Assembly (NCBI GenBank): GCA_965649115.1
Contig: CBFGJN010000057.1
Coordinates: 1 to 12,251 of the forward strand
Source of the DNA: a candidate division WOR-3 bacterium
GTDB lineage: Bacteria; Hydrothermota; Hydrothermia; LBFQ01; DSFT01
Length of the DNA stretch: 12,251 nt
Direction: 5' to 3'
Part shown: one piece after another, positions 317 to 12,251 of the stretch
Layout: each line of letters starts with the position of its first letter
Position numbering within the stretch: position 1 is the stretch's first letter
The notes under the pieces: generated by a model
Databases searched by the model: none
Seen by the model: only the letters and a program-made list of their open reading frames with translations
What the model was told of the DNA's origin: nothing
Translations under genes and position numbers: made by a program

Positions 317-344
317 ATTATTTTTCACCTCCATTCAGTTCCAA

Positions 345-373
345 ATTTTAAGGCTAAACATTTTCACTGTCAA
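345..373 (-). promoter_or_regulatory. sigma70-type promoter for prkA
   Basis: Minus strand TTGACA (373..368), 17-bp spacer, TAAAAT (350..345), followed by the SD and ATG. Confidence 0.75.
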
Positions 374-395
374 GAGGGGTCATAAATGGCTCATT

Positions 396-504
396 ACTGT
401 GTCTGACAATTTTGAAAGTCCTTATTTTATCATATTTTCTCCCACCCACTCTGAAAATAAAGCTTCGCTTTATAAAGGACTTAACATTATTTATTAGACA
501 AAAC
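396..504. mobile_element. MITE-like repeat, copy A (109 bp)
   Basis: Degenerate left end ACTGTGTCTGACAA and right end TTATTAGACAAAAC. Core TTATTTTA..ATATTTT.TCCCACCCAC, hairpin ATAAAGC-TTC-GCTTTAT (457-473) and tail ACTTAACATTATTTATTAGACAAA all align with copy D. Confidence 0.7.
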
Positions 505-505
505 T

Positions 506-808
506 TTAGGAGAAAATTCCTTGAAACATTAATTCATATATATTGATTTTTAAACGATTATTAAGTTCGTCTTTTATTATTGGTTCAATCAAAATTTCAA
601 TTTCCAGAAGATTCTGTTCTAAAATTATATTATCAATTGCATCATAATCTTTATAGTTTTCGTATTCTGCAATTAAGTATCCGTTTGCGTCAAGATAAAT
701 ATAGCCTATAAGTCTTTTATTTTTATATAAGTTGAACAAAATTGGCTTTCTTGATAAGGCGAAGATCTGTAAAATTTCTTCTAAATTTCCATTAACAATC
801 TTCATCAT
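506..808 (-). CDS. Stand-alone DUF4388 (PATAN-like) domain protein
   Basis: GNLEEILQIFALSRK...GYIYL..GYLIAEY...DAI..I...KINIYELM fits the DUF4388 pattern (L..LLQ....S.K.G, G.IYF..G....A, ...EA...L, I......LL). TATAAT lies 7 nt upstream of the ATG. Confidence 0.6.
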   Translation of the reverse strand: MMKIVNGNLEEILQIFALSRKPILFNLYKNKRLIGYIYLDANGYLIAEYENYKDYDAIDNIILEQNLLEIEILIEPIIKDELNNRLKINIYELMFQGIFS

Positions 809-956
809 ATTTTAAATTATAATTTTATTTCTTAACAAATTCTAAACGGGTATTAAGTGTGCGGATATTAAGGATAAATCAGTTTGGTGATGCCGTGTTC
901 AATTATTTCTATTCTTTAATTATGGATTTATGACAAGCCCCCAAGGCAAAAGAATT

Positions 957-1016
957 GCTTTGTCCAGTAAAAGGAGGAAAAATATAGAAAAATATATGTT
1001 TAGTACTATACAAAGC
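957..1016. mobile_element. MITE-like repeat, copy E (60 bp, internally deleted, inverted relative to A-D)
   Basis: TGCTTTGTCCAGTA (956-969) and TACTATACAAAGCA (1004-1017) are inverted repeats matching at 12/14. The interior GGAAAAATATAGAAAAATATATGTTTAG aligns with the reverse complement of copy D (GGAAAAATATAGTAAAATAAATGATTTTAG). ATT flanks both sides. Confidence 0.7.
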
Positions 1017-1033
1017 ATTAAAATTTTCGTATT

Positions 1034-1450
1034 TTGCTATCTGTAATAACAAAGTCAGAGGAAGAAACACAAAAATTCGGTTATGATTTTGCCAAAAGCT
1101 TAGACTTAAATCAATTACCTGTCATAATAAAATTAATAGGTGAAGTCGGAAGTGGTAAAACTACATTTACAAGAGGTTTTTTAAAGTTTTTCAATATTGA
1201 AAATGCCAGAAGTCCAAGTTTTACAATTATAAATGAATATAATGCCAATAATTTGAAAATTTATCATATTGATTTTTATAGGATAAAAGGTTTTGAATTT
1301 GAAAATTTAGGAATTGATGAAATTTTAATGAGAAAAGCAATAATTATTATTGAATGGCCTGAAAATGTTAGTTTAAATCTTGAAAAAACAATTGATATAA
1401 AATTTGAGATTTTGTCAGAAAGTGAAAGAAAAATTACAATTATAGAATAA
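1034..1450 (+). CDS. tsaE: tRNA threonylcarbamoyladenosine biosynthesis ATPase TsaE (YjeE)
   Basis: SEEET..FG, Walker A GEVGSGKTTF, SPSF, YHIDFYRI and IIEWPE motifs; TTG start. Confidence 0.96.
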   Translation: MLSVITKSEEETQKFGYDFAKSLDLNQLPVIIKLIGEVGSGKTTFTRGFLKFFNIENARSPSFTIINEYNANNLKIYHIDFYRIKGFEFENLGIDEILMRKAIIIIEWPENVSLNLEKTIDIKFEILSESERKITIIE

Positions 1451-1581
1451 TTCTTTATTTTACCCACCCGCCCAAAAATTAAGCCATTGGCTTAAAAAAT
1501 CCTCATCTTTGGGAGGCTTTGCCTCCCTTTAAAACTCCCAAATAAATTTATAATTTCAGAAAGTTTTTCATATAATTACTC
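1451..1581. repeat. MITE-like repeat, copy B (core intact, termini eroded; boundaries approximate)
   Basis: TTATTTTACCCACCCGCCC, hairpin TTAAGCC-ATT-GGCTTAA (1479-1495), second hairpin, then TTTAAAACTCCC...TATAATTT, in the same order as copies C and D. Terminal inverted repeats are not clearly recognisable. Confidence 0.65.
1511..1530 (+). terminator. GC-rich hairpin within copy B that could act as an intrinsic terminator for tsaE
   Basis: GGGAGGC-TTT-GCCTCCC followed by TTTAAAA; the U-tract is short. Confidence 0.4.
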
Positions 1582-1599
1582 TTCTATAAAATTTAAACC

Positions 1600-2079
1600 T
1601 TGATGAACTACGTTTATATTTCACTTGGAACAAATTTGTTTGATAAAGTTAAAAATTTGAAGTATGCTATTAAAAAAATTAATGATTTTTCTAAAATTAT
1701 TCAAACTTCAAGTATTTATGAAAGCGAACCATATGGATATGAATTTCAAAATACTTTTTTAAACATTAGTATTCTTATTTCAACATCGCTAAACCCGTTT
1801 GACTTATTAATGGAATTTAAAAAAATAGAAAATTTAATGGGAAGAAAAAATTTATTTAGATATTCTCCAAGAATTATTGATATTGATATTCTTCTTTTTA
1901 ACGAATTTGAAATTAAAACGGAAAATTTAATTATTCCTCATCCCGAAATCTATAATAGAAGTTTTTTTGTAATTCCACTTCTAGAAATTATTTCAAAAGG
2001 TTTTAGAACCCTAAATTTTGATATAAGTAAAATTAATTTTAAGAATGGATGGTTGAGTAGAATTCCTCATCGTGTTTGA
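1600..2079 (+). CDS. folK: 2-amino-4-hydroxy-6-hydroxymethyldihydropteridine diphosphokinase (HPPK)
   Basis: YISLGTNL, SSIYESEPYG, FLN, IENLMGR, PRIIDIDILL, IPHP and RSF..PL.EI motifs. Start is TTG 1600 or ATG 1603. Confidence 0.96.
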   Translation: MMNYVYISLGTNLFDKVKNLKYAIKKINDFSKIIQTSSIYESEPYGYEFQNTFLNISILISTSLNPFDLLMEFKKIENLMGRKNLFRYSPRIIDIDILLFNEFEIKTENLIIPHPEIYNRSFFVIPLLEIISKGFRTLNFDISKINFKNGWLSRIPHRV

Positions 2080-2860
2080 TAAATTCAAAATCTTTGTCAT
2101 CCATAGCCAAAAACTTATATTCTATATTTGTTTCAATAGCTTTTTTAAGATTTATTATAGCATTTTTTTTATCTTTTAATAATGCATATGCACAAGATTT
2201 AATGTAATAAGCTTCTCCTCTATTGACATTTTTCTTAATGATTTCCTCACATATTTCAATTGATGCTTTGGGATCTATTTCTAGCATTAACTTTGCTTTG
2301 TGTAATAAACCTGAAATATAATTTGGATTTATTTTTAATGCTTTATCTACTAATTCTTTTGCTTCGTTTATTTTTCCAAGTTTATATAAAAGGATTGATT
2401 TTCCCGTTAAGCTATAAAAATCGTTTGGATTTTCATCTAATATACTATTATAGATTTCAATTGCTTCGTTATAAAAACCCATTTCAGATAAAATGGCAGC
2501 TTTATTTGGTAATAAAATTCTTTTAGCATCACTTTCTATATCTAAACCTTGCTCTATACAATTTAGAGCTTCTTGGTAGTGTTTTAGTTGTAAATAAATA
2601 AGAGCCTTTAAATTATAACCTCTTATGAATTTTGGATTTATTTCAAGAACCTTATTAACGCATATAAGGGCTGTTGTCCATTCCATGGTGTAATAATACT
2701 TTGTAGCAAGAATGAAATAATCTATTTCGTCTAATTTATAATCAAAATCAACAATCATTTTATTTAATAAATCACAAAATTCATTTATCTTAGGCAAATC
2801 ATTAAGGTATAAAATTCTTGAAGATAATTCAAATTTTAAATCTTCAAACTTTTCATTCAT
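2039..2860 (-). CDS. Tetratricopeptide-repeat protein
   Basis: Several TPR-like 34-aa units (KVLEINP, YQEALNCIEQGL, YNEAIEIY...ENP, KALKINP) and a C-terminal AYY.KSCAYALL...AI..LKKAI...A..D.DF cap. Start overlaps the yebC stop. Confidence 0.85.
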   Translation of the reverse strand: MNEKFEDLKFELSSRILYLNDLPKINEFCDLLNKMIVDFDYKLDEIDYFILATKYYYTMEWTTALICVNKVLEINPKFIRGYNLKALIYLQLKHYQEALNCIEQGLDIESDAKRILLPNKAAILSEMGFYNEAIEIYNSILDENPNDFYSLTGKSILLYKLGKINEAKELVDKALKINPNYISGLLHKAKLMLEIDPKASIEICEEIIKKNVNRGEAYYIKSCAYALLKDKKNAIINLKKAIETNIEYKFLAMDDKDFEFIKHDEEFYSTIHS

Positions 2861-3599
2861 TAAAACTTTCTAAAATATCTTTTTCAATATCAAAATTTGC
2901 GTAAACTTCTTGAACATCATCATGTTCATCAAGTGCATTGTACAATTTTAAAACTTTTTGAGCTTTTTCTCCCTCAACTTTAATTGTATTGTTTGGAATT
3001 AATGTGATTATTGATGAATCAATTTCTATTCCTTCTTTAATAAGGGCATCCTTTACATTATGAAAATCTTTTGGATTTGTATAAATTACAAAACAGTCTT
3101 CTTCTTTTATATCTTCAACATTTAAACTTAAAGCTAATTCAAATATCTTTTCTTCATTAACTTTATTTTTATTTATATATATAATGCCTTTTTCAGAGAA
3201 TTGCCAGAGAACGGAACCACTCGTTGCCAAATTTCCTCCATATTTTGAAAAAATGTGTCTTATCTCATTTACTGTTCTATTTTTATTATCAGTTAAAGCT
3301 TTTACAACAAAAGCAATTCCTTCTGGACCATAACCTTCATATATTACCTCTTCATAATTTGTCCCTTCTTCATTACCTAGCGCTCTTTTTATTGCTCTTT
3401 CTATGTTTTCCTTTGGAAGATTAACTTCTTTTGCCTTTTCCAAGATAAGCCTCAATCTAGGATTACTTTCAGGATCAGAACCACCAATTTTAACTGCTAT
3501 TGTAATTTCTCTTATAATTTTAGAGAATAATTTACCTTTTCTAGCATCTTTTAAAGCTTTTTTGTGTTTTATTTGAGCCCATTTACTATGTCCTGCCAT
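2853..3599 (-). CDS. yebC: YebC/PmpR family protein
   Basis: MAGHSKWAQIKHKK, NPRLR, YEGYGPEG, TDNKNRT and LDEHDDVQEVYANF signature motifs. Confidence 0.97.
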   Translation of the reverse strand: MAGHSKWAQIKHKKALKDARKGKLFSKIIREITIAVKIGGSDPESNPRLRLILEKAKEVNLPKENIERAIKRALGNEEGTNYEEVIYEGYGPEGIAFVVKALTDNKNRTVNEIRHIFSKYGGNLATSGSVLWQFSEKGIIYINKNKVNEEKIFELALSLNVEDIKEEDCFVIYTNPKDFHNVKDALIKEGIEIDSSIITLIPNNTIKVEGEKAQKVLKLYNALDEHDDVQEVYANFDIEKDILESFNE

Positions 3600-3634
3600 A
3601 TTTAAATTTTAAAGGATAAGAAGTTCAAATAATT

Positions 3635-3752
3635 GATTTGTCTAGTAATTCTAAAAGTATCTATTTTTCCCGCCCTAAAAATAAGCCTTTGGCTTAAACC
3701 CCCTTAAATTCCCACATTAAAACAATAATTTCAAAAAGCAATTAACAAAAGC
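3635..3752. mobile_element. MITE-like repeat, copy C (118 bp)
   Basis: TTGTCTAGTAATTCTAAAA (3638-3656) is identical to 12104-12122. Then TATTTTTCCCGCCCT, hairpin TAAGCC-TTT-GGCTTA (3682-3696), CCCCCTTAAATTCCC, and a shortened right end TTAACAAAAGC. ATT flanks both sides. Confidence 0.75.
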
Positions 3753-3753
3753 A

Positions 3754-4608
3754 TTATTGAAGTTTCGTTAATATAATACCGAAAATTATAATTATTATTG
3801 AAATTATAGCCCAAATTTCAATTTTTTCACCAACAATGATGCTCAACAAAAAAATTGATATAATTGGGGTTAAGTACATTAAATTGGCAACTATCGGAAT
3901 ATATATTTTTTCCTCAATAGCTTTTGCATAAATTAAAAATGTTATACTCATTTCAAAAATGCTAATATAAAAACTTCCGATTATTCCATAAATGTTGAAC
4001 TTTAAACTACCAAAAAATATCATAAAAAAGCTAATATAAAAAAAGCCAAATAAAAAGTTATAAAAAAGTTTAATTTCAATTTTTCTTTCATCGTTAGCAT
4101 TTAAAATCCAATAGATAGCCCAAATGATAGCACAGGAAATGCCTAACAAAAACCCAAAAGGATTAGAAAATTTAAAATTTATAACATTGCCCTTCGTTGC
4201 TAAAATCAAAATACCAATAAAACTTATCAAAATTCCTAAAACTTGAAAAAGTTTGATTGTTTTGAAAAAGAAAATTACTGAAAAAATAAAGAAAAAAATT
4301 TGCCATGTATTATTTAAAATTAGCATTTCTTGCCCTTTCATTATTGAATATCCTAAAAACAATAGCATATAATATAGAAAAGGGACAAGAAAACCTAAAT
4401 AAATAGAATTTCTATTACTGCTAAAATTAAGAATTTTCTTTAAATTTCCAAGCTTTAAATTTAAAAGAAACAAAATTAAAACTGAAAAAAAGCTTGAATA
4501 AAAGAGTAAGCTAAAAAAGTCAATAAATTTTAATGTAATTTTAAATGCACTAGCACTTGTTGACCAAAATAAAATTGAAATGATAGCATAAGTTAAGCTT
4601 TTTCTCAT
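3754..4608 (-). CDS. DMT/EamA-family transporter
   Basis: About 10 hydrophobic segments in two repeats; ILFWSTSASAFK, WAIYWILN, YLTPIIS and IVGEKI motifs. Confidence 0.9.
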   Translation of the reverse strand: MRKSLTYAIISILFWSTSASAFKITLKFIDFFSLLFYSSFFSVLILFLLNLKLGNLKKILNFSSNRNSIYLGFLVPFLYYMLLFLGYSIMKGQEMLILNNTWQIFFFIFSVIFFFKTIKLFQVLGILISFIGILILATKGNVINFKFSNPFGFLLGISCAIIWAIYWILNANDERKIEIKLFYNFLFGFFYISFFMIFFGSLKFNIYGIIGSFYISIFEMSITFLIYAKAIEEKIYIPIVANLMYLTPIISIFLLSIIVGEKIEIWAIISIIIIIFGIILTKLQ

Positions 4609-4612
4609 AGAT

Positions 4613-4641
4613 TTGAAATTTTAAATCTTATGCTTTATAAT
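4613..4641 (+). promoter_or_regulatory. sigma70-type promoter, predicted leaderless start at the ATG at 4649
   Basis: TTGAAA (4613-4618), 17-bp spacer, TATAAT (4636-4641), 7 nt, then ATG; no SD. Confidence 0.75.
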
Positions 4642-4648
4642 TTTCGGT

Positions 4649-4975
4649 ATGACAAGAAGAACATTCTTAAAGGTAGTTGGGGTTGTGGGGTTGATGGGTA
4701 TAGCGCTAAGAGGGAATGCTCTTGCTCAAGCTTCAAACTCAAAGTCCATAAACTATATTGAGGAAACTACAGATGGATATAATGTTATATTTTCAGATGG
4801 TTCTGTAATGAATGTAAATGAAACTGGTCTTTATGTTCTTGGAAGATTAAAGGAAGGTGCTTCTATAAGTCAAATAGCTAATGAAATTTCTCAAATTACT
4901 AAAAAAGATCCAAAAACTATTAAAGAAGATATAGAGGTTTTTGTGGATAATTTGAGGGTTCTTAAAATTATTTAA
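4649..4975 (+). CDS. Twin-arginine (Tat) signal peptide fused to a PqqD/RiPP-recognition-element-like domain
   Basis: MTRRTFLK Tat consensus, hydrophobic h-region and ALA|Q cleavage site. The mature part has three predicted beta strands then VNETGLYVLGRLKEGASISQIANEI...DPKTIKEDIEVFVDNLRVLKII, which matches the PqqD pattern LN.TG..IW..L....T...I...L......IE.D...FL..L....LI. Confidence 0.75.
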   Translation: MTRRTFLKVVGVVGLMGIALRGNALAQASNSKSINYIEETTDGYNVIFSDGSVMNVNETGLYVLGRLKEGASISQIANEISQITKKDPKTIKEDIEVFVDNLRVLKII

Positions 4976-5722
4976 TTGAAAAATATAATTGCAATTCCTG
5001 CACGTTATAATTCTTCTCGTTTAAGAGGTAAGGTTCTTTTAAAAATTGGAAAAAAAACATTAATAGAGTGGGTTCTTGAAAATGTTTCAAAATCAAAAAT
5101 TGCGGATGAAATTGTAGTAGCAACCGAAGATGAGAATGTTTATAATTTTGTAATTAAACTTGGATATAAATGCTTTATAACTTCTGATAAGCATCAAAGT
5201 GGAACGGATAGAATTGGAGAAGTTATTATGAATTTTCCAAATTATTATTTTATCGTTAATGTTCAAGCTGATGAACCATTTATAAAATCTGAAATTATAG
5301 ATAAAATTTTTTATGAACTTCATAACGATAGAACAGCTCATATTATAACTCCCATAACTCAAATAAATAATTTAGAAGAAATTAACAATCCAAATATTGT
5401 AAAAGTTGTTTTTGATAATCATTTTTTTGCAATTTATTTTTCAAGAAGTCCTATACCTTATAATAGAAGTGGGAATGCTATTTATTATAAACATATTGGA
5501 GTTTATGGATATAAAAGAGATTCATTGTTTAGCTTCATAAACCTTAAAAAATCAAAATTAGAAGAAGTTGAAGGACTTGAACAATTAAGGGCAATTGAAA
5601 ATGGTCTTAAAATTAAATGTATTATTGTGGATTATGATGGAATATCAATTGATACAATTGAAGATCTAGAAAAGGCAAGACAATTGGCTTTAAAATTTCA
5701 AAGTTATGATTATTCAAGATGA
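4976..5722 (+). CDS. kdsB: 3-deoxy-manno-octulosonate cytidylyltransferase (CMP-Kdo synthetase)
   Basis: IPARYNSSRL.GK, VVATED, HQSGTDRI, NVQADEP, YFSRSPIP, KHIGVYGY, LEQLRAIENG and IDTIEDL motifs. TTG start directly follows the upstream TAA. Confidence 0.96.
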   Translation: MKNIIAIPARYNSSRLRGKVLLKIGKKTLIEWVLENVSKSKIADEIVVATEDENVYNFVIKLGYKCFITSDKHQSGTDRIGEVIMNFPNYYFIVNVQADEPFIKSEIIDKIFYELHNDRTAHIITPITQINNLEEINNPNIVKVVFDNHFFAIYFSRSPIPYNRSGNAIYYKHIGVYGYKRDSLFSFINLKKSKLEEVEGLEQLRAIENGLKIKCIIVDYDGISIDTIEDLEKARQLALKFQSYDYSR

Positions 5723-6134
5723 GGAAAAACTTTTAAATTATCTAAAAAGTGCTAAAAGGATAGCAGTTATAGGTATAAAAGACAATCACGATGAGCCTGC
5801 TGGGAGAATTCCTAGATACTTATTAGCTAATGGTTATGATGTTATTCCGATAAATCCAAAATTGGAAAAGTGGCTTGGTAGAAAAGTATATAAAAGCATA
5901 GATGAAGTTGAGGAAGAAGTGGATATTGTAGATATATTCAGAAGATCAGAAGCTGTATTAGAGCATGCGAAGGAGATATTAAGAATGAAACATAAACCGA
6001 AACTTGTTTGGATGCAAGAAGGAATTATAAATGAAGAAGCAGCAAAATTGTTATCTGAAAATGGAATAGATGTTGTAATGAATAAATGTATTTATAAAGT
6101 TCATAGCTCATTTAAAAGTAGGGGGTTGTTATGA
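5706..6134 (+). CDS. CoA-binding domain protein (YccU-like)
   Basis: AKRIAVIG, YL..GYDVIPINP, VDIVDIFRRSE, VWMQEGI.NEEA and VVMNKC motifs. Confidence 0.92.
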   Translation: MIIQDEEKLLNYLKSAKRIAVIGIKDNHDEPAGRIPRYLLANGYDVIPINPKLEKWLGRKVYKSIDEVEEEVDIVDIFRRSEAVLEHAKEILRMKHKPKLVWMQEGIINEEAAKLLSENGIDVVMNKCIYKVHSSFKSRGLL

Positions 6135-6484
6135 GAAGAAAAATTTTTGTAGGAGCACATGCAAAAAGAGAAAGAAAAGCTTTTAAAGAATTTTTAATAA
6201 AATATCTAAAAGATAAAGTAAGAAACATATATGATAAAATTGCAGAAATGATATTTGAAGATGAAAATAATGTTAGAACTTCAAAAATTTTACAAAGAAT
6301 TTTTGTTGAGGTTTATGAGTTTTACATAAAGGGTGATGAGAAATTAGAAAGCGCTCTTGTAAAAGAATTAAAAATTGTATATAATAAAAAAGATATGAAT
6401 CCAAGTGATGTTCTTTCAAAACTCGTTTCTTATTTAAAAAATCAAAGAGAAATCGTGGAAGAGGAAAGTTATGAAGAGTACTGA
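6131..6484 (+). CDS. Hypothetical protein
   Basis: ATGA overlap with the upstream stop, GGGGG SD-like run, typical amino-acid composition, overlaps the next gene. No family recognised. Confidence 0.7.
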   Translation: MRRKIFVGAHAKRERKAFKEFLIKYLKDKVRNIYDKIAEMIFEDENNVRTSKILQRIFVEVYEFYIKGDEKLESALVKELKIVYNKKDMNPSDVLSKLVSYLKNQREIVEEESYEEY

Positions 6485-7799
6485 ACTTTTTGATATAGCA
6501 GAACAAATCATAAGAATTTCTAAATTTTCAACAGATGTTATCATTTTCTATAATGAATATCTTTTTCAAAGATTTGCAAACTCATTTATCCATCAAAGTA
6601 CTTTTGAAGAAAATTTAATAATTTCAGTTAGAATAAAATCTGAAAACAGGTACGCAATTTTTTATATAAATAATTTTGATATTGAGAAAATAAAATTGCT
6701 TTTAAAAACATCTGAAAATTCAATGATTGAAAGTGAATTTTTGTTTCCATTAGAAAAGAAAGAAATTCCAAAATATGAATTTGCTTTTGATAATTTTGAA
6801 ATAAATCCTGATGAAAGTTCAAGGATTATTAAAGATATTATAAGAATTGGCGGAGATTATAAGGCATTTGGTAATTTTTATAGAGGTTTTCAACATATTG
6901 CTATGTTAAGTTCAGATGGTTTTGAGGCATATAATAAATGCTCAATAAATCATTTAACAATAAATTACATCAATTCAAATAGCTTCTGGTCTCAATATAG
7001 TAGTTATAAATTTAATGATATTCTTGAAAACTACGAGAAAATTGCCAAAAATTGTTTAAATATGGCAATTTTAAATGAAAATCCAATTGAAATAAAGGAA
7101 GGAAAATATGATGTTATTCTTTCAAGTTTAGCTTTAAGTGAAATTATTGATTATCTTAATTATTTTGCTCTTTCTTCAAAAAATTATTATGAAGGCACAA
7201 GTCCTTTTAGTGGTAAATTAAATGAAAAAATTTTTTCTGAAAAAATGAATTTATATGAAGAACCTTATAATTTATTGTTATTTCCAAGAGGATTTGATTT
7301 TGAAGGGAATATTAAGAAAGAAATTCCAATAATAGAAAATGGAGTTTTAAAAAACATAGCTCTTAATAACAAGTACTCCAAACTTCTCAATTTAGAAAAC
7401 AATGCATCTTCTAATGTCCCTTTTCAAGATTATCCTTTCTTCCTTCATCTTCATCTTAAAGGGGGTAATAAGAGTTTAGAAGATATAATAAAAGAAACGG
7501 AAAGAGGAATTTTTGTAAATAGAATTTGGTATTTAAACTTAGTTGAACCAATGAGTTTTACATTAACAGGAATGACAAGAGATGGTTTGTTTTTAATAGA
7601 AAATGGAAAAATTAAATCTGCTATTAAGAATATGAGATTTACCCAAAGTTTTATAGAAGTTTTTAACAGTGTAATTGAAATTTCAAGAGATGAAAAGCTT
7701 ATTATTAATTCTAATTTTTACGAATTTTATCCAAGAGGTTCTTTAATGCCTGATATTAAAGTTTCAAATTTTAATTTTATAAGTAAAACTGATTTTTGA
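6471..7799 (+). CDS. TldD/PmbA-family protein, PmbA/TldE-like (no HExxxH)
   Basis: RFANSFIHQ, GKYDVIL, FDFEG, IIENGVLK, ETERGIFV..IWY, TGMTRDGLFLIENGKI and NMRFTQS motifs. The position where TldD has HExxxH reads LSEIIDYL. Confidence 0.9.
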   Translation: MKSTELFDIAEQIIRISKFSTDVIIFYNEYLFQRFANSFIHQSTFEENLIISVRIKSENRYAIFYINNFDIEKIKLLLKTSENSMIESEFLFPLEKKEIPKYEFAFDNFEINPDESSRIIKDIIRIGGDYKAFGNFYRGFQHIAMLSSDGFEAYNKCSINHLTINYINSNSFWSQYSSYKFNDILENYEKIAKNCLNMAILNENPIEIKEGKYDVILSSLALSEIIDYLNYFALSSKNYYEGTSPFSGKLNEKIFSEKMNLYEEPYNLLLFPRGFDFEGNIKKEIPIIENGVLKNIALNNKYSKLLNLENNASSNVPFQDYPFFLHLHLKGGNKSLEDIIKETERGIFVNRIWYLNLVEPMSFTLTGMTRDGLFLIENGKIKSAIKNMRFTQSFIEVFNSVIEISRDEKLIINSNFYEFYPRGSLMPDIKVSNFNFISKTDF

Positions 7800-8773
7800 A
7801 TATGAGGGAAGATGAAATTTTGAAAAATATATTTAAATTCTATAAGTCAAATCCAAGGATTATATTAGGTCCTGGTGACGATTGTGCCATTATTTCAGAA
7901 ATGGTTAATAAGAACTTACTAATAACTAATGATGCCTTTATTGAGAATATCCATTTTAAATATGATTTGCTATCGTTTTATGAAATAGGTTATAAAAGTG
8001 CTACTGCTGTTTTAAGTGATATATGTGCTATGGGAGGCACTCCTATTGCTGTTCTTGTTAGTTTAAATATAAATCAAAAATCAATAAATAAAATTGAAGA
8101 AATATATAAAGGAATTTCTGATGTTTGTGATAAGTTTTGCATTTCAATAGTTGGTGGAAATATAGAAAAGTACGATAGATTAGAATTACATTTAACTGCA
8201 ATTGGTGAAGTAAAAAAAGATAAAGCATTATTAAGAAGTAATGCAAAAATTGGTGATTTAATAGCAATAACAGGAGATATAGGAAGGTCAAGAGGTTATT
8301 TCATTGCTTATGAAAAGCATTTAATAAGTGGTGTTAAATGGTGGATAAATGAAATGCGAGAAAAGTTTGCTCGTCCAATTGTAAGGTTTGAAGAAATAAA
8401 TAAAATTTTAAGCAATATAAATGTAAATGCTTGTATAGATATTTCGGATGGTCTTGGAATAGATGGTTATAGAATGGCTAATTTGAGTGAAGTTCAAATT
8501 GTGATATATGCAAATAAGCTTCCAATTAAAGATTCTGTAAAGTTTCTTGCTAAAAAACTTGAAATTAAAGATTGGTTTATAGCAGTAGAAAGTGGTGAAG
8601 AATATGAGTTATTGTTATCAATACCAAGGGAAGAAGAAGAAAAAATAAAAAAATTAAATTTACCAATTACAATAATTGGAGAAGTTATTGAAGATAAACC
8701 AGGTATTTATATTATTGATGGTGATTTAAAAATTGATATATCAAGGAGAGGATATGATGCCTTTGCTATTTAG
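7796..8773 (+). CDS. thiL: Thiamine-monophosphate kinase
   Basis: GPGDDCA, D.FIENIHF, LSDICAMGG, VGGN, RSNAKIGD, IDISDGL and SGEEYELL motifs. Start is TTG 7796 or ATG 7802. Confidence 0.95.
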   Translation: MNMREDEILKNIFKFYKSNPRIILGPGDDCAIISEMVNKNLLITNDAFIENIHFKYDLLSFYEIGYKSATAVLSDICAMGGTPIAVLVSLNINQKSINKIEEIYKGISDVCDKFCISIVGGNIEKYDRLELHLTAIGEVKKDKALLRSNAKIGDLIAITGDIGRSRGYFIAYEKHLISGVKWWINEMREKFARPIVRFEEINKILSNINVNACIDISDGLGIDGYRMANLSEVQIVIYANKLPIKDSVKFLAKKLEIKDWFIAVESGEEYELLLSIPREEEEKIKKLNLPITIIGEVIEDKPGIYIIDGDLKIDISRRGYDAFAI

Positions 8774-9440
8774 CTATACATTAAATTTAAACGAGAAATT
8801 AGAATATAAAGCAAAATATGGACCAATAAATATAGGAGAAATGTTTCTAAAAGTTGAAGGAATAGAAGTCATTAGAGGTATTCCTTGTTATAAATTGAGA
8901 TTGTTTGCAAAAGGTGGTGCACTTGGTATAAATTTATATGAGGATTTTATATCTTGGGTAGATACGCAAAATTTTAGAACAGTTAAATTTTATAAAAGAC
9001 AAATTGAACCAGGTTGGAATTATGAAGTGACAATAAATTACTATGAAAATTATGCTGAATATGATGAAATTAAAGATGGAAAGAAGGATAAAAAGACTTT
9101 TCAAATACCCAAAAATGCTCTTGATCCAGTTGCATTAATTTATATTGTTAGATTTCTTGATTTAAAAGACACGATTTTATTACCTTATCACATGGATGGT
9201 TTTTCAGGATATGCTAAAATTTTTATTAAAAGAAAAGAAAAATGTAAATGGCTTGGAGTTGAAGAAGATTGCTATGCTATATCACCAATTTTACCTATGG
9301 ATGAAGGAAAGAAAAAAGAGGTTTTTGGTGATAGAGGCGGTGAAATTATTATTTCAAGTTCTAAAAAAATTCCTATTAAAATTAAAGTTAATCTTGTTGT
9401 TGGAAGTATGATTGGATATATTGTGAAAATTTTTCCATAA
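8754..9440 (+). CDS. DUF3108-like protein
   Basis: EKLEY...YG.I..G...L, F.SWVD, LDP..LIY..R and IP.KI.V....GS match the DUF3108 pattern. SD AAGGAG (8743-8748) favours ATG 8754 or 8757 over the TTG at 8733. Confidence 0.7.
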   Translation: MMPLLFSYTLNLNEKLEYKAKYGPINIGEMFLKVEGIEVIRGIPCYKLRLFAKGGALGINLYEDFISWVDTQNFRTVKFYKRQIEPGWNYEVTINYYENYAEYDEIKDGKKDKKTFQIPKNALDPVALIYIVRFLDLKDTILLPYHMDGFSGYAKIFIKRKEKCKWLGVEEDCYAISPILPMDEGKKKEVFGDRGGEIIISSSKKIPIKIKVNLVVGSMIGYIVKIFP

Positions 9441-9975
9441 CAATTTGTCTAACTTTTTCAATTCTCGTTTTTAATGTATTTCTTACAATAAATCCTCTTT
9501 CTTTATCTTCAACAACAATACCAAACTTAACATTTTCATCTTTTATAATTTGAAATTGATTTAAAAATTTTTTTATTATTTCAAAATCTTCTGGATTAAC
9601 ATAAACAACTGGGTTTTGAAAACTATTATTTTTGAAAACTTCATCAACAATTCTTTTTAAATAATTTTCATAAATGCTTTTATCTTTAAACAATTTTATA
9701 ATTTCATCTTCTAAATTTTCAAAGACTTTATTTAAAATTTCATTTTGAATATCTATTAAATGCGAATTAATTTCAAGTTGAACACTACCTATAATTTTCT
9801 GTCTTTGAGAATGAATGTAATTTTTTGCTTTTTTAATATATTCTTCAATAATTGTAGGGATTTTTTCTTTTGCTTTTTCAATGATTTCAGAGGCACCCAA
9901 AAGGGCACCAGATATAATTTCTTCTGCTTCTTTTTTTGCCTTGTTTAGTACAATACTTTCAATGTGTTCTATCAT
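9388..9975 (-). CDS. atpE: V/A-type ATP synthase subunit E (peripheral stalk)
   Basis: N-terminal coiled coil (KAKKEAEEII...A.EIIEKAKE) and C-terminal VYVNPED...GIVV....NTL..RIE; follows subunit K with an ATGA overlap. Confidence 0.88.
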   Translation of the reverse strand: MIEHIESIVLNKAKKEAEEIISGALLGASEIIEKAKEKIPTIIEEYIKKAKNYIHSQRQKIIGSVQLEINSHLIDIQNEILNKVFENLEDEIIKLFKDKSIYENYLKRIVDEVFKNNSFQNPVVYVNPEDFEIIKKFLNQFQIIKDENVKFGIVVEDKERGFIVRNTLKTRIEKVRQIVMEKFSQYIQSYFQQQD

Positions 9976-10280
9976 TGCGTCATTATCAAGAACATTACAA
10001 CGAAACCAAATATAATAATAGTTTCAGGAATTACGAAAAGTGTAAGAACAGTACCAAGCATGCTTCTGTCTTCTGATATTGCACCTACACCAGCAGCTCC
10101 AATTCTGCTTTGTGCTATACCAGTTCCTATACCTGTCAAACCAATAGCAAGACCCATACCTATATATTTCCCAGCTTTTGCTATGTCAGAAGATGTTGAA
10201 GGTTCAGCAGCAAAAGCTAAACTTACAAACATCAAAATGCCAATTATAGCAAGCGCAAATCCCAAAATTTTACGAAACAT
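9972..10280 (-). CDS. atpK: V/A-type ATP synthase proteolipid subunit K (c/L), single hairpin with N-terminal signal-like segment
   Basis: GMGLAIGL.GIGTGIAQSRIGAAGVGAISEDRS...IPETIIIFG with the conserved Glu; SD AAGGAGG (10295..10289). Confidence 0.95.
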   Translation of the reverse strand: MFRKILGFALAIIGILMFVSLAFAAEPSTSSDIAKAGKYIGMGLAIGLTGIGTGIAQSRIGAAGVGAISEDRSMLGTVLTLFVIPETIIIFGFVVMFLIMTQ

Positions 10281-12060
10281 AGTTTAGCCCTCCTTTTTTC
10301 AAAGGTTTAAATACCCTTTCTCCGGTTTTGTAAAATTGAATGAAGAACTCAACAATTTGAAGACGCATACCTTGAATTGTTGGATCTAAAAATCCAAGTA
10401 AAAATGCCAAAAGATGGAAAATTAAAGCAGTTATAATAGCAAAAATCAAACTTGGTATCATTGAAAAGAACATATTACCCATTTCTGCTAAAACCGCTGA
10501 TGCTAATGCTACTGCTGCTAATCTTGCAAAACTTAAAATTTGTCCTGTTGTTGAAATTAGCTCAATTGGTGCAATAAATCCATGTGTTAATATAACACCA
10601 ATAATTGATATAACAATTAGAGAAATTGAGATATAAAGAAAAATGCTAATTTGAATAACTTTTAAGAAATAAAGACCTAAAATAATAAAGCCAATTACCC
10701 CAATTAGTCTGAATATTTCATAAAATGCTAAATGTTTATCTTTTAATTTTAAATTATTAAAGATACCAAATAAAATACCAAGAATAACTTGAATAATTCC
10801 AAGGATTATTGAAATACCAATTATTAAACTTGCTGAATGAAGTCTATGAATAATAGGCTTTAATATACCAAGTTTATAAAATAACTCACCAAAAGCTTCT
10901 CCATATAAAAATCCAAAAAATATAGCCCAAGTTAATGCCCACAAATAAATTGTTGTTAAATCTTTAATAATTTCATTTTTTGAAAATTTAGCTCTAAAAA
11001 ATAAAACAATTATTAACATTATTAAGGCATAACCAATATCACCAAGCATCATTCCAAAATAAGGTGGGAAAAATAACCATAAGAAAAATGTTGGGTCAAT
11101 TGTTCCATATTTTGGATAACCATAAAAATCTAAAACTCTTCTAAATGGCTTTGAGAAATTCATCGTTTTGATAAGTGTTGGCACCTTGTCGTACTCAAAA
11201 ATGCTTGGTTCTTCAAACTTAATGAAGTAATAACCTTCAAAATTTTTTAGGGCACTTAATAATTTTTCTTTTTGTGATTTCTCAACCCACCCTTTAATAA
11301 AGAAAACATAATTTGAAAATGAAGCATATTTTCTTAATATATTTAAATTTTCAAACTTTTCAAGAACCGAAAGTTTTACATTTGAAAATTCATTTAAAAT
11401 TTTTTCTTTAGATGATTTAATTTCATTATCAATATTGCTAATCTCATTTTTTAAAATTGATATGTCAATTGAAATTTTTTCAAATGCTTGGCTTAGTGTT
11501 AAATTTTTATATTCGTTTGGTAAAATAAATTCATTAAAACCCTCTTTATATATTAAATCTCTAACTTCTTCATAAATCAAAATTGCAAATCTATCTTCCC
11601 TTATTTTAACAATTTGAAATTTTTTTAAGTTAAGTTTTTTAAATGTTTCTAAATCCTTCTTTATAGCAATAATAATTAAATTGGGTGTAGGGAAATTATA
11701 AATTTTTGAAATTGTTAAATAGTAATCATTTAACAAGTTTAATTTTGATATTTTTTCTTCTTTCTTATAAATTAAGTTTTTTACATTTTTTAAAATTCCT
11801 TCAAGCCAATCTATTGTTTTTTCATTAACATCAACAAAATTATTACCAACAGGAAAAGGACCAATCAAATGTTCAATATCTGAAATTAAATTTCTTGCTT
11901 TTTTATATATATCTTCGTTTTCTATGGTCATTTCGGGACTTTTATACTTTTGAGGATATTCATCAATATGAACAATTCCAAGTTCCTTTATTACATTTAA
12001 AATATCAAAAAACTTTTCTTTATCTCCCACCAATTCAAATTTTAGGAGTGGTTTAATCAT
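10270..12060 (-). CDS. atpI: V/A-type ATP synthase subunit I (a)
   Basis: IKGWV, VPTL, YG.PKY.TIDPT, FGMMLGDIGYA, FGFLYGE.FG, ILSFARL (essential Arg) and RLQIVEFF..FY.TG...F.P motifs. Confidence 0.96.
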   Translation of the reverse strand: MIKPLLKFELVGDKEKFFDILNVIKELGIVHIDEYPQKYKSPEMTIENEDIYKKARNLISDIEHLIGPFPVGNNFVDVNEKTIDWLEGILKNVKNLIYKKEEKISKLNLLNDYYLTISKIYNFPTPNLIIIAIKKDLETFKKLNLKKFQIVKIREDRFAILIYEEVRDLIYKEGFNEFILPNEYKNLTLSQAFEKISIDISILKNEISNIDNEIKSSKEKILNEFSNVKLSVLEKFENLNILRKYASFSNYVFFIKGWVEKSQKEKLLSALKNFEGYYFIKFEEPSIFEYDKVPTLIKTMNFSKPFRRVLDFYGYPKYGTIDPTFFLWLFFPPYFGMMLGDIGYALIMLIIVLFFRAKFSKNEIIKDLTTIYLWALTWAIFFGFLYGEAFGELFYKLGILKPIIHRLHSASLIIGISIILGIIQVILGILFGIFNNLKLKDKHLAFYEIFRLIGVIGFIILGLYFLKVIQISIFLYISISLIVISIIGVILTHGFIAPIELISTTGQILSFARLAAVALASAVLAEMGNMFFSMIPSLIFAIITALIFHLLAFLLGFLDPTIQGMRLQIVEFFIQFYKTGERVFKPLKKGGLNYVS

Positions 12061-12100
12061 AAAGAAAGAAAATTTTAAAGTTCAAAAATTTAAGTTATTT

Positions 12101-12248
12101 GCCTTGTCTAGTAATTCTAAAATCATTTATTTTACTATATTTTTCCCACCCACCCTATGAATAAGCCTTCGGCTTTAAACTTCGCCCCCCTTAAATCCCC
12201 CGTAAAATCTATAATTTGAGCAACTTAACATGATTTATTGGACAAAGC
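12101..12248. mobile_element. MITE-like repeat, copy D (148 bp, both terminal inverted repeats intact)
   Basis: Left GCCTTGTCTAGTAA (12101-12114); right TTATTGGACAAAGC (12235-12248, reverse complement GCTTTGTCCAATAA). Core CCCACCCACCC, hairpin AAGCC-TTC-GGCTT (12163-12175), CTTCGCCCCCCTTAAATCCCCC. Confidence 0.78.
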
Positions 12249-12251
12249 ATA

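Follow-up and report, generated by a model that had tools for sequence, protein, structure and literature searches.

A ~205-bp non-coding transposon family and its resident IS903-type parent found next to putative promoter boxes in a candidate division WOR-3 bacterium

A single kind of short repeat recurs between the genes of the DNA considered here, which raises the question of what these repeats are, what moves them and how they came to lie where they do. The window, i.e. the whole stretch of 12,251 nt that was analysed, is the entire contig C57 of a hot-spring candidate division WOR-3 bacterium with a genome of 1.85 Mb (G000). As claimed in the initial annotation, every large intergenic gap was occupied: a copy or fragment of the repeat was present in each of the five inter-ORF gaps that measure 100 nt or more. 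Copies A to D were located by nhmmer with a profile built from 113 canonical genome copies (203-207 bp, median pairwise identity 78 %). Copy E was too short to be reached by this profile and was detected by blastn with copy D (1017-976, 81 % identity, E 1.3e-4). Coordinates are given in Table 1.

Table 1. Repeat copies, large gaps and putative promoter boxes of the window.
Feature	Position	Strand	Description
Gaps of at least 100 nt	335-505, 809-1033, 1451-1599, 3600-3753, 12061-12251		one copy per gap
Copy A	395..505	+	internally deleted MITE, ~111 bp; nhmmer 397-476, model 3-81, E 1.9e-8
Copy E	956..1017	- (inverted)	62-bp mini-derivative; both termini flank ~30 nt of left-arm sequence
Copy B	1447..1572	+	internal fragment without termini; nhmmer model 30-160, E 2.7e-17
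Copy C	3634..3753	+	deleted MITE; nhmmer 3634-3732, model 1-145; degenerate right end to 3753
Copy D	12100..12249	+	150 bp, both termini, lacking ~55 bp of interior; nhmmer model 1-205, E 4.8e-26
prkA-like gene, variant putative promoter box CCTTAAAATTT	343..353	-	41 nt to copy A, non-canonical spacing
yebC putative promoter box CTTTAAAATTT	3604..3614	-	4 nt (3600-3603) to start codon ending at 3599
V-type ATPase subunit I gene, putative promoter box	12070..12080	-	gene ORF 10270-12060, Pfam V_ATPase_I

The five window repeats are decayed copies of a ~205-base non-coding transposon. Copies B, C and D were joined directly by the window repeat search (families D1, D3 and D5, copy B belonging to D1 and D5), and the module order described initially is that of the genome-wide consensus. 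Copy B, situated between tsaE and folK, contained a C-rich box and both hairpins. Termini were recognised by eye in copy A (left TACTGTGTCTGAC, right TTATTAGACAAAACT, which extend the profile match to 395-505) and in copy E (TGCTTTGTCCAGTAA and TATACAAAGCA); copy C displayed a left terminus (TGATTTGTCTAGTAATTC), whereas its right end (AACAAAAGCA) was degenerate. The right end of copy D lies 2 nt from the contig end, and its termini align with the ends of the parent insertion sequence (IS) described below and with those of IS903B. The early view of a single family differing by internal deletions was correct, but none of the window copies is the full form and all derive from the 205-bp element.

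Genome-wide, the copy number of the family was far above chance. Copy D gave 658 blastn HSPs and the profile gave 781 matches totalling 99,217 bp (5.4 % of the genome), or one match per 2.4 kb. Repeats accounted for 93,220 of 220,880 intergenic bases (42 %), 683 of the matches lying outside called ORFs; copies were encountered in 314 of the 476 gaps that reach 100 nt versus nine of 394 shorter gaps, and 107 of 198 contig ends fell inside one. The canonical element is 205 bp long, non-coding and bounded by imperfect inverted termini (TGCTKTGTCYARTAA...); among 112 distinct copies, 88-100 % pair positions 6-12 with 211-217. The two termini are related yet unequal (left TGCTKTGTCYARTAATTC, right ...ACATTATTTATTGGACAAAGCA), and a CCCACCCACCC box lies in the interior together with two GC-rich hairpins. 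Copies with both ends measured 124-256 bp. The family thus displays the short length (below ~300 bp), the absence of coding capacity and the terminal inverted repeats of MITEs. An undescribed, genome-wide family of such elements had been suspected from the window, and these counts bear out its genome-wide spread; no earlier description was found within the literature searched. Two to five matches were present at 196 of 485 loci, as head-to-tail arrays with constant short spacers.

No duplication was found in the flanks of copy A (ATGGCTCAT / TTAGGAGAA) or copy E, and those of copy C do not match. The initial remark that 9-bp duplications were not visible therefore holds for the five window copies, but genome-wide the duplication is unmistakable. 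Among 240 full copies, 119 displayed flanks identical at eight or more of nine positions (100 perfect pairs and 19 with one mismatch), against one of 234 shuffled pairings. Flank identity was 0.62-0.73 exactly at positions -9 to -1, compared to 0.30-0.39 for shuffled pairs, and equalled the control beyond, i.e. a target duplication of fixed length with sharp edges. A recognisable duplication was absent in the other 121 full copies. The partner flank lay at another contig end in 40 cases, versus 20 exact matches in a reversed-flank control run on all left flanks; part of the missing duplications corresponds to such partner flanks, through assembly path errors or real recombination.

The cognate autonomous element resides in the same genome. 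The left and right termini of the MITE match, respectively, the two different ends of a multi-copy IS, of which 16 copies of one end and ten of the other were gathered, each set being 98-100 % identical and situated 100-236 nt from contig ends. Only ends were seen, at contig ends, because the short-read assembly collapsed the IS. Their flanks included six perfect 9/9 duplications pairing ends of different contigs; chance pairings did not exceed 6/9, except for one 8/9 pair whose partner also belonged to a perfect pair. One end (read from contig C93) encodes a transposase N-terminus of 56 aa, which matched NF033579 (E 3e-5, below the cut-off owing to its short length) and was 92 % identical, over 86 % of the 56 aa, to metagenomic protein P0001. 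This 300-aa protein displays the domains DDE_Tnp_1 (PF01609, E 4.8e-25) and DDE_Tnp_1_5 (PF13737, E 2.3e-20) and scored 245.5 bits on NF033579 over residues 5-292 (cut-off 140). The opposite IS end in G000 encodes the P0001 C-terminus MNSFYSYSNLAD, and the IS interior in G000 is probably equivalent to P0001.

A complete copy was not found assembled in G000 or in four congeners, where searches with PF01609 and PF13737 returned nothing. The IS would be ~1,053 bp long (68 nt + 903 nt + ~82 nt); IS903B has 1,057 bp between its repeats, and a metagenomic copy (L062), whose ORF is broken internally, spans 922 bp. Like IS903 and IS903B, the parent is a one-ORF IS of ~1.05 kb with both DDE domains and 9-bp duplications. 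The right terminus of IS903B from plasmid locus L069 (GGCTTTGTTGAATAAATC) and the terminus of copy D (TGCTTTGTCCAATAAATC) were identical at 15 of 18 positions, in keeping with the 15 of 17 first counted for the IS903 repeat. In contrast, P0001 was only 26-27 % identical to IS903B transposases, over 96 % of the protein (tblastn, E ~1e-13). Matches to the family models, the duplication and size, and the IS903-like terminus identify the parent as an IS5-family, IS903-type IS. The parent family, left unsettled by the initial annotation, is thereby settled, a transposase bounded by the same inverted repeats, whose search it had suggested, was recovered at both its ends, and its notion of elements mobilised in trans found its cognate IS.

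These results also bear on the possibility that the repeats belong to another prokaryotic class, such as REP/BIME with RAYT, BOX-like modules or a CRISPR-like array. Hairpins, modular structure and the head-to-tail arrays would suit such repeats, but the present elements end in inverted repeats that also bound an IS encoding a DDE transposase, their flanks are 9-bp direct duplications, and the array spacers are 9-nt duplications rather than unique 30-nt spacers. We consider this class extremely improbable and retain the DDE-derived MITE.

The copies were not positioned at random. A CTTTAAAATTT box was encountered ~16 nt before the start codon in roughly one quarter of all gene starts and, judging by its position, probably serves leaderless mRNAs as a -10-type promoter element. 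Left ends of the MITE pointed towards gene starts in 268 cases and towards stops in 46, with a median distance of 36 nt to the start codon. The end of a TTTTAAAG box lay 19 nt from 102 of 451 left ends and 18 nt from 42; a minor class of 43 displayed it at 10-13 nt, and 161 left ends had a unique flank in which no strict box stood 18-19 nt away. Conversely, 96 of 338 strict promoter boxes lay 18-19 nt from a left end. In the window, copies C and D were separated from the yebC and V-type ATPase subunit I boxes by exactly 19 nt (3615-3633 and 12081-12099), and only these two displayed this spacing, copy A lying further away, copy E abutting a box-like sequence and copy B having no termini. The parent behaved alike: nine of 16 IS copies had a box at 18-19 nt by pattern, visual inspection added two with a variant box 19 nt away, and three lay 9 nt from a MITE end. 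In metagenomic relatives (61-88 % amino-acid identity), a box followed by a start codon was located 18-19 nt from six out of six IS ends. The same end is thus placed 18-19 nt upstream of the box in MITEs, IS copies and metagenomic relatives.

Such a pattern could be left by purifying selection if insertion were nearly random and harmless only just outside promoters. The genome is compact (a crude ORF call puts the coding share at ~88 %), so that neutral space is scarce, and the divergence of the canonical copies (median pairwise identity 78 %) marks them as old, which has given selection time to act. Selection would however produce a one-sided boundary with a tail, whereas the left ends at 18 and 19 nt form a peak bordered by two each at 17 and 20 nt. 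The IS copies are recent, since their ends are 98-100 % identical, yet 11 of 16 already lie at 18-19 nt, and the spacing recurs in all six relatives from other metagenomes. Moreover, within 60 nt of the 338 strict boxes, a left end was found for 127 and a right end for only 11, which under selection requires a polar element, and no promoter- or terminator-like site above chance was found in the MITE. We regard selection as an unlikely cause; the spacing appears to reflect target choice, not survival of neutral insertions.

Copies varied in presence between sister species and strains, and empty orthologous sites, which had been proposed as a check, were encountered for three window copies. In a related strain (run X6), one contig joins 385 to 509 with nine other letters in between, i.e. 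without copy A. Copy C was absent from sister genome G002 (88 % nucleotide identity), where the orthologous yebC/eamA gap is only 12 nt long, against 131 nt here. At the position orthologous to copy D, G001, G003 and G004 were empty and G002 contained only a terminus relic, TGCCTTGTCC. At element-free orthologous sites of close relatives, the promoter box was unchanged.

This variation concerns a further reading, in which the copies are host regulatory modules kept at promoters (upstream promoter elements, insulators or terminators, or small RNAs with C-rich anti-Shine-Dalgarno boxes), transposition being only their origin. Both hairpins are conserved, pairing in 96-100 % of 112 distinct copies, and one stem pair is swapped from CG to GC in 36 of the 112, although this may be a single inherited event. 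The fixed distance at 96 of 338 boxes and the relic in G002 would also agree with a retained function. Yet relatives do without copies while keeping the box unaltered, 194 of the 338 strict boxes have no copy, and internal deletions of all sizes are tolerated among both-ended copies. Rfam gave no match at E ≤ 1 in the window and, in two stacks of canonical copies, a single one below threshold (18.4 bits versus 58.6), so that none reached the gathering score and the suggested comparison disclosed no known RNA family. No consensus promoter or terminator was found in the copies: a simple scan of a stack of canonical copies yielded no terminator-like site and one promoter-like site, against 3.4 expected. 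A regulatory role seems slightly less likely still than selection, and the partial domestication proposed at first is not supported, given the missing copies and the lack of an Rfam family, consensus promoter or terminator.

We therefore favour, with good though not complete confidence, a MITE moved by the resident IS903-type IS and targeted 18-19 nt upstream of the promoter box. The ~1.05-kb IS, through its ~300-aa IS5-family DDE transposase, would mobilise the MITE in trans. Target strands would be cut 9 bp apart, and this stagger would account for the 9-bp duplications. The terminus adjoining the 3' end of the transposase ORF, which corresponds to the MITE left end, would be placed 18-19 nt upstream of the CTTTAAAATTT box. 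As the duplicated 9 bp would cover approximately -35 to -27 from the start codon, the promoter would be kept intact by the promoter-proximal copy. Repeated strikes at the same 9 bp may produce the head-to-tail stacks with 9-nt spacers. The 9-bp target at about -35 to -27 is also the region lying under bound RNA polymerase, which is awkward for recruitment of the transposase by polymerase.

For IS903, a preference for a symmetric arrangement about the 9-bp target has been described. Correia elements carry 26-bp inverted repeats and duplicate TA, and no active parent is known for them, whereas the present family duplicates 9 bp and has an active parent; the 9-bp duplication rules out membership in Correia (NEMIS). 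Within the literature searched, as far as its text was accessible, a fixed distance and orientation from a promoter box was not reported for IS903-type elements. According to the accessible text of PMC6382973, MITEAba12 is likewise a short derivative sharing its termini with co-resident copies of ISAba12, a relative of IS903, with 9-bp duplications in AT-rich targets that are visible in only 40 % of copies; it numbers 90 copies over 31 genomes, compared to 781 matches in 1.85 Mb here. Correia elements of Neisseria and ERIC of enterobacteria resemble the present family as abundant intergenic MITEs with inverted termini and size variants, being 100-200 bp long, and ERIC reaches 711 copies in Photorhabdus (PMC10969869); the present density (one per 2.4 kb, 42 % of intergenic DNA) exceeds the figures in the accessible part of that source.

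The TnGBS conjugative elements and the insertion sequences ISLre2 and ISKra4 target sigma-A promoters, entering 15-17 bp upstream of the -35 box, their orientation being set by the dissymmetry of their two inverted repeats (PMC3942029, accessible text). They share with the present element unequal termini and a fixed orientation, but lie upstream of the -35 box, whereas this element occupies, 18-19 nt upstream of a -10-type box, the -35 position itself. Their transposases are Mutator-like, in contrast to the IS5/IS903-type enzyme found here, which rules out membership in the promoter-targeting Mutator-like (p-MULT) group; the resemblance is one of working only. The accessible text of PMC3942029 makes no mention of MITE derivatives of these elements.

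MITEs and IS903-type elements are well known; unusual here are the load, the precision and the promoter map. One family makes up ~5 % of the 1.85 Mb of G000, amounts to 42 % of the non-coding DNA and interrupts the assembly at over half of all contig ends, and one end is located 18-19 nt from a promoter box in the MITE, its living parent and distant relatives of other samples. According to PMC3942029, in its accessible text, homing to promoters has been demonstrated, among bacterial elements, only for the Mutator-like TnGBS, ISLre2 and ISKra4. If targeting is true, a second, unrelated transposase family would show that transposons of compact genomes have resorted to promoter homing more than once, and its small enzyme, with an inherent 'safe harbour' preference, could be studied. 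The closest transposase relatives in species-representative genomes were mostly archaeal, displayed a TGCTGTGTTGAATAA terminus and in several copies lay 13-16 nt from TATA-like boxes. Tentatively, and with somewhat less than even confidence, we suggest that an IS903-type transposase of ordinary size and without extra domain reads promoter architecture and inserts itself and its MITE one way at the -35 position of leaderless promoters; that the pair thereby saturated a small thermophile genome without breaking genes; and that promoter homing may be an old trait of a cross-domain IS903-like clade using AT-rich boxes in bacteria and archaea. The element also serves as a promoter marker in an uncultured lineage in which leaderless mRNAs seem to be widespread, and its 9-bp duplications allow contigs of G000 to be joined across IS copies.

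The source genome (G000) comprised 1.85 Mb in 99 contigs, the smallest being 2.8 kb long, with 27.6 % G+C; the window is all of its contig C57. Each of the five intergenic gaps of at least 100 nt in the window contained a copy or a fragment of the repeat, in agreement with the initial annotation, and the module order described there was also that of the genome-wide consensus. The commonest full length throughout the genome was 204-206 bp, and all window copies were internally deleted forms. The surrounding ORFs were of housekeeping type. Two of them overlapped on opposite strands; the plus-strand ORF is spurious because only the minus-strand one belonged to a family.

Positions of the repeat copies, boxes, genes and loci considered
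Feature	Position	Remarks
Copy A	397-476	profile of canonical genome copies
Copy B	1447-1572	profile of canonical genome copies
Copy C	3634-3732	profile of canonical genome copies
Copy D	12100-12249	profile of canonical genome copies
Copy E	956-1017	inverted; 62-bp mini-copy with both termini; blastn only, E 1.3e-4
Box CTTTAAAATTT	3604-3614	window
Box CTTTAAAATTT	12070-12080	window
Box CTTTAAAATTT	5688-5698	window
Overlapping ORF	9964-10287	window, plus strand
Overlapping ORF	9972-10280	window, minus strand; ATP-synt_C, V-ATPase proteolipid
Other window ORFs		prkA fragment, tsaE, folK, TPR protein, yebC, EamA transporter, kdsB, pmbA/tldD, thiL-like gene, DUF3108, V-type ATPase subunits E, K, I
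Locus L038 (G000:C23)	575-1340	class I SAM-methyltransferase-like ORF
Locus L061 (metagenome contig)	966-1052	IS relative upstream of tuf (EF-Tu)
Contig pairs with perfect 9-bp duplications		C43/C93, C16/C38, C22/C1, C33/C83, C39/C20, C76/C88

With copy D as query, blastn returned 658 HSPs in G000, and two rounds of nhmmer gave 664 hits, 269 of which spanned both ends. The final profile, built from 113 copies that were 203-207 bp long and had a median pairwise identity of 78 %, retrieved 781 hits totaling 99,217 bp or 5.4 % of the genome. When genes were called crudely from ORFs (1,694 in total), 683 of these hits touched no ORF and 93,220 of the 220,880 intergenic bases (42 %) were occupied; among the 476 gaps with a length of 100 nt or more, 314 contained a copy. 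Contig ends fell in or beside a copy in 107 out of 198 cases.

MITE ends were imperfect inverted repeats, and the copies were flanked by sharp-edged direct duplications of 9 bp: identity between the two flanks was 0.62-0.73 at exactly nine positions and equaled the shuffled control beyond. Among 240 copies, 100 displayed perfect duplications and 19 had one mismatch, versus one of 234 shuffled pairs. Duplicated 9-mers were AT-rich and lacked a consensus. The anatomy of the repeat family is that of a MITE. Half of the full copies had no duplication; for 40 of them, the absent partner 9-mer was located beside a different element, in most instances at the end of a contig, while a control with reversed flanks, in which all left flanks were tested, yielded 20 exact matches. 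These displaced partners may reflect either recombination among copies or errors in the assembly path. Stacks of two to five hits were found at 196 of 485 loci, with a median spacer of 9 nt; the spacers within a stack could be identical (e.g. C5:47713-48240), and head-to-tail stacks arise because the same nine bases are used repeatedly.

Pfam searches of G000 and four congeners revealed neither DDE_Tnp_1 nor DDE_Tnp_1_5, the IS5-type transposase domains; the IS interior is simply missing from the assemblies. Two other sources of a parent were rejected: L013-L018, which are IS copies from the sister genus, did not display MITE-like termini, and terminus pairs 0.6-3 kb apart all bracketed housekeeping genes (a RadA-like ATPase, alanine racemase, biotin carboxylase, a XerC-like integrase and others), none of the 13 scanned proteins being a transposase. 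Listing termini that were not followed by MITE sequence uncovered two recurrent ends, always situated 100-236 nt from a contig end. The first, starting with TGCCTTGTCCAATAATTCCCCC, occurred 16 times and the second, starting with TGCTTTGTCCAATAAATAATGTCAAGGGG, ten times, and copies of each were 98-100 % identical. Such a pattern is left by a multi-copy element when the assembly cannot bridge it.

In the second IS end, a box, ATTTAAAATTT, preceded an ATG situated at 68 nt from the tip. On contig C93, the 56 codons present at this end matched the IS5-family transposase model NCBIfam NF033579 (E 3e-5), and Pfam assigned no family to this fragment. Its one match among longer proteins was the metagenomic protein P0001 (300 aa, 92 % identical, PF01609 and PF13737), which aligned with NF033579 over its whole length (245.5 bits, cut-off 140) and served as a stand-in for the IS interior. 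The C-terminal residues of P0001, MNSFYSYSNLAD, were encoded in G000 at the first IS end, followed by a stop codon and ~82 nt to the tip. Six cross-contig pairs of IS-end flanks shared a perfect 9-bp duplication, chance pairings peaking at two to three of nine positions; these duplications pair the IS ends, so the six contig pairs can be joined as scaffolds across an IS copy. The left terminus of the MITE and the IS end at the 3' side of the transposase had the TAATTC signature in common, and the right terminus and the other IS end shared TAAATAATGTYAAG. With each MITE terminus matching a different IS end, the IS is the natural mobiliser. From these shared termini and coding ends, an IS5-family, IS903-type element was identified as the parent of the MITE. 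The exact 34-nt IS pattern had no match in metagenome contigs, nor did P0001 in the genome contig collection.

By tblastn, IS903B transposases on plasmids were 26-27 % identical to P0001, the alignments spanning 96 % of its length. The likeness to IS903 noted in the initial annotation held when the IS903B terminus was read from one of these plasmid loci, with 15 of 18 positions matching the right terminus of copy D. Among known elements, IS903-type ISs with MITEs, such as ISAba12/MITEAba12, are the closest; their 9-bp duplications arise at AT-rich targets, and 40 % of copies bear a duplication (PMC6382973).

Box CTTTAAAATTT was located at -16 (+/-2) of 379 out of 1,671 start codons, and the Shine-Dalgarno sequence GGAGG at -12 of 280 other start codons. 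The distance from TAAAAT within the box to the ATG is as expected of a -10 element with transcript start at the start codon, which is why the box is read as a probable promoter of leaderless mRNAs; a box at -16 leaves no space for a Shine-Dalgarno sequence. This arrangement suggests that about a quarter of the genes, probably those first in operons, may be expressed leaderless from a -10-type box.

Because of this box, MITE left ends (matching the IS tip beside the 3' end of the transposase) face gene starts: they pointed toward a start 268 times and toward a stop 46 times, at a median of 36 nt from the start codon. A box lay within 70 nt of 195 of 451 left ends, at a distance of 19 nt in 102 and of 18 nt in 42; a minor class of 43 left ends was found at 10-13 nt, and almost none elsewhere. 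Conversely, 96 of the 338 strict boxes had a left end at 18-19 nt and 127 had one within 60 nt, where right ends were present for only 11. In the window, copies C and D were situated at exactly 19 nt from the box, and a variant box was present at 41 nt from copy A. The rarer arrangement, with the right end toward the promoter, was exemplified at L038, where a solitary fragment of the MITE right end was followed, 34 nt beyond its tip, by the CTTTAAAATTT box belonging to an ORF with the motif LDAGCGVG (by eye). The nine duplicated bases would cover approximately -35 to -27, and the promoter would stay whole beside the promoter-proximal copy.

The 18-19-nt spacing could result from target choice or from survival of the copies. 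Three observations favored target choice: the peak is only two bases wide, recent near-identical IS copies also lie at 18-19 nt, and IS relatives in other metagenome contigs display the same spacing. By pattern, nine of the 16 IS copies had a box at 18-19 nt and two more had a variant box at 19 nt, while three were located 9 nt from a MITE end, i.e. stacked. In three of ten right-hand flanks of the IS, a MITE left end directly followed the duplication, making the IS the newest stack member and the nearest to the promoter. The metagenomic relatives (61-88 % aa identity) had the same two termini and some had MITEs of their own; in six out of six, the box was found 18-19 nt past the same end, followed by a start codon. 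At L061, the IS of a relative was separated by 19 nt from a downstream box of variant sequence, CTTTATACTTT, after which came a 5' leader containing the Shine-Dalgarno sequence AAGGAGG; homing is thus not limited to leaderless genes.

The insertion target is where bound polymerase would be, and the transposase showed no domain beyond those of the family model. Nested insertions beside the MITE's own CTTAAAATTT-like box were found at none of 25-50 sites, a test of low power; there are hints that the bare box sequence is insufficient for insertion. Promoter homing with fixed orientation is described for TnGBS, ISLre2 and ISKra4, which insert 15-17 bp ahead of the -35 box (PMC3942029). These Mutator-like elements are unrelated to the IS5-family parent considered here. 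No report of promoter homing by IS5-family elements or MITEs was found in the open-access literature covered. Relative to known MITEs, the novelty resides in the promoter-homing behavior and the extreme density.

The initial annotation also considered the family partly domesticated, of which no sign was found: there was no Rfam match, deletions of any size were tolerated and 194 of the 338 boxes were without a copy. In a stack of canonical copies, terminator-like sites were absent and promoter-like sites were less frequent than in shuffles. Hairpins were well conserved, and one stem pair was swapped in 36 of 112 copies; covariation was rejected as RNA evidence since a single swapped pair may be one event, and together these features fall short of what a claim of structural selection would require.

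Among the 41 genomes searched, the family was confined to the genus. Full-length matches were restricted to G000, its sister genome G002 and the congener G003; G004, G019 and G036 had short matches only (22-35 nt), and none was detected in G001 and the other 34 genomes, two of the sister genus included. The site of copy C was a 12-nt gap in G002 (~88 % nucleotide identity). Copy A was missing from a related-strain contig of another hot-spring run, a comparison in which most joints were cross-matches between copies. At the site of copy D, nothing but a relic of a terminus remained in G002, and the site was empty in the genomes G001, G003 and G004, with two divergent promoter boxes 7-16 nt apart. 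No clean excision footprint was found, as the empty A and C sites in relatives do not collapse to a single 9-mer. When window positions 335-1600 were compared with G002 contigs C7, C1 and C31, gene-order breaks coincided precisely with copies A, E and B; the neighbors prkA, a 100-aa ORF, tsaE and folK were on separate contigs or 10 kb apart in G002. Either MITEs mediated a rearrangement or the contig is chimeric at the repeats.

Among species-representative genomes, those with the closest relatives of the transposase (at most 43 % identity) were mostly archaeal, the relatives being found in Thermoplasmatales, Nitrososphaerota and a Methanoperedenaceae genome with ~18 copies (L077-L081, L085, L113-L123, L126 of record LR991653.1, and other loci). 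The Methanoperedenaceae IS was ~1,010 bp long with termini TGCTGTGTTGAATAAC. One of its copies adjoined another terminus after 8 nt, and a TATA-like box was seen by eye 12-16 nt past the IS end adjoining the 3' side of the transposase in ~8 of the 18 copies.
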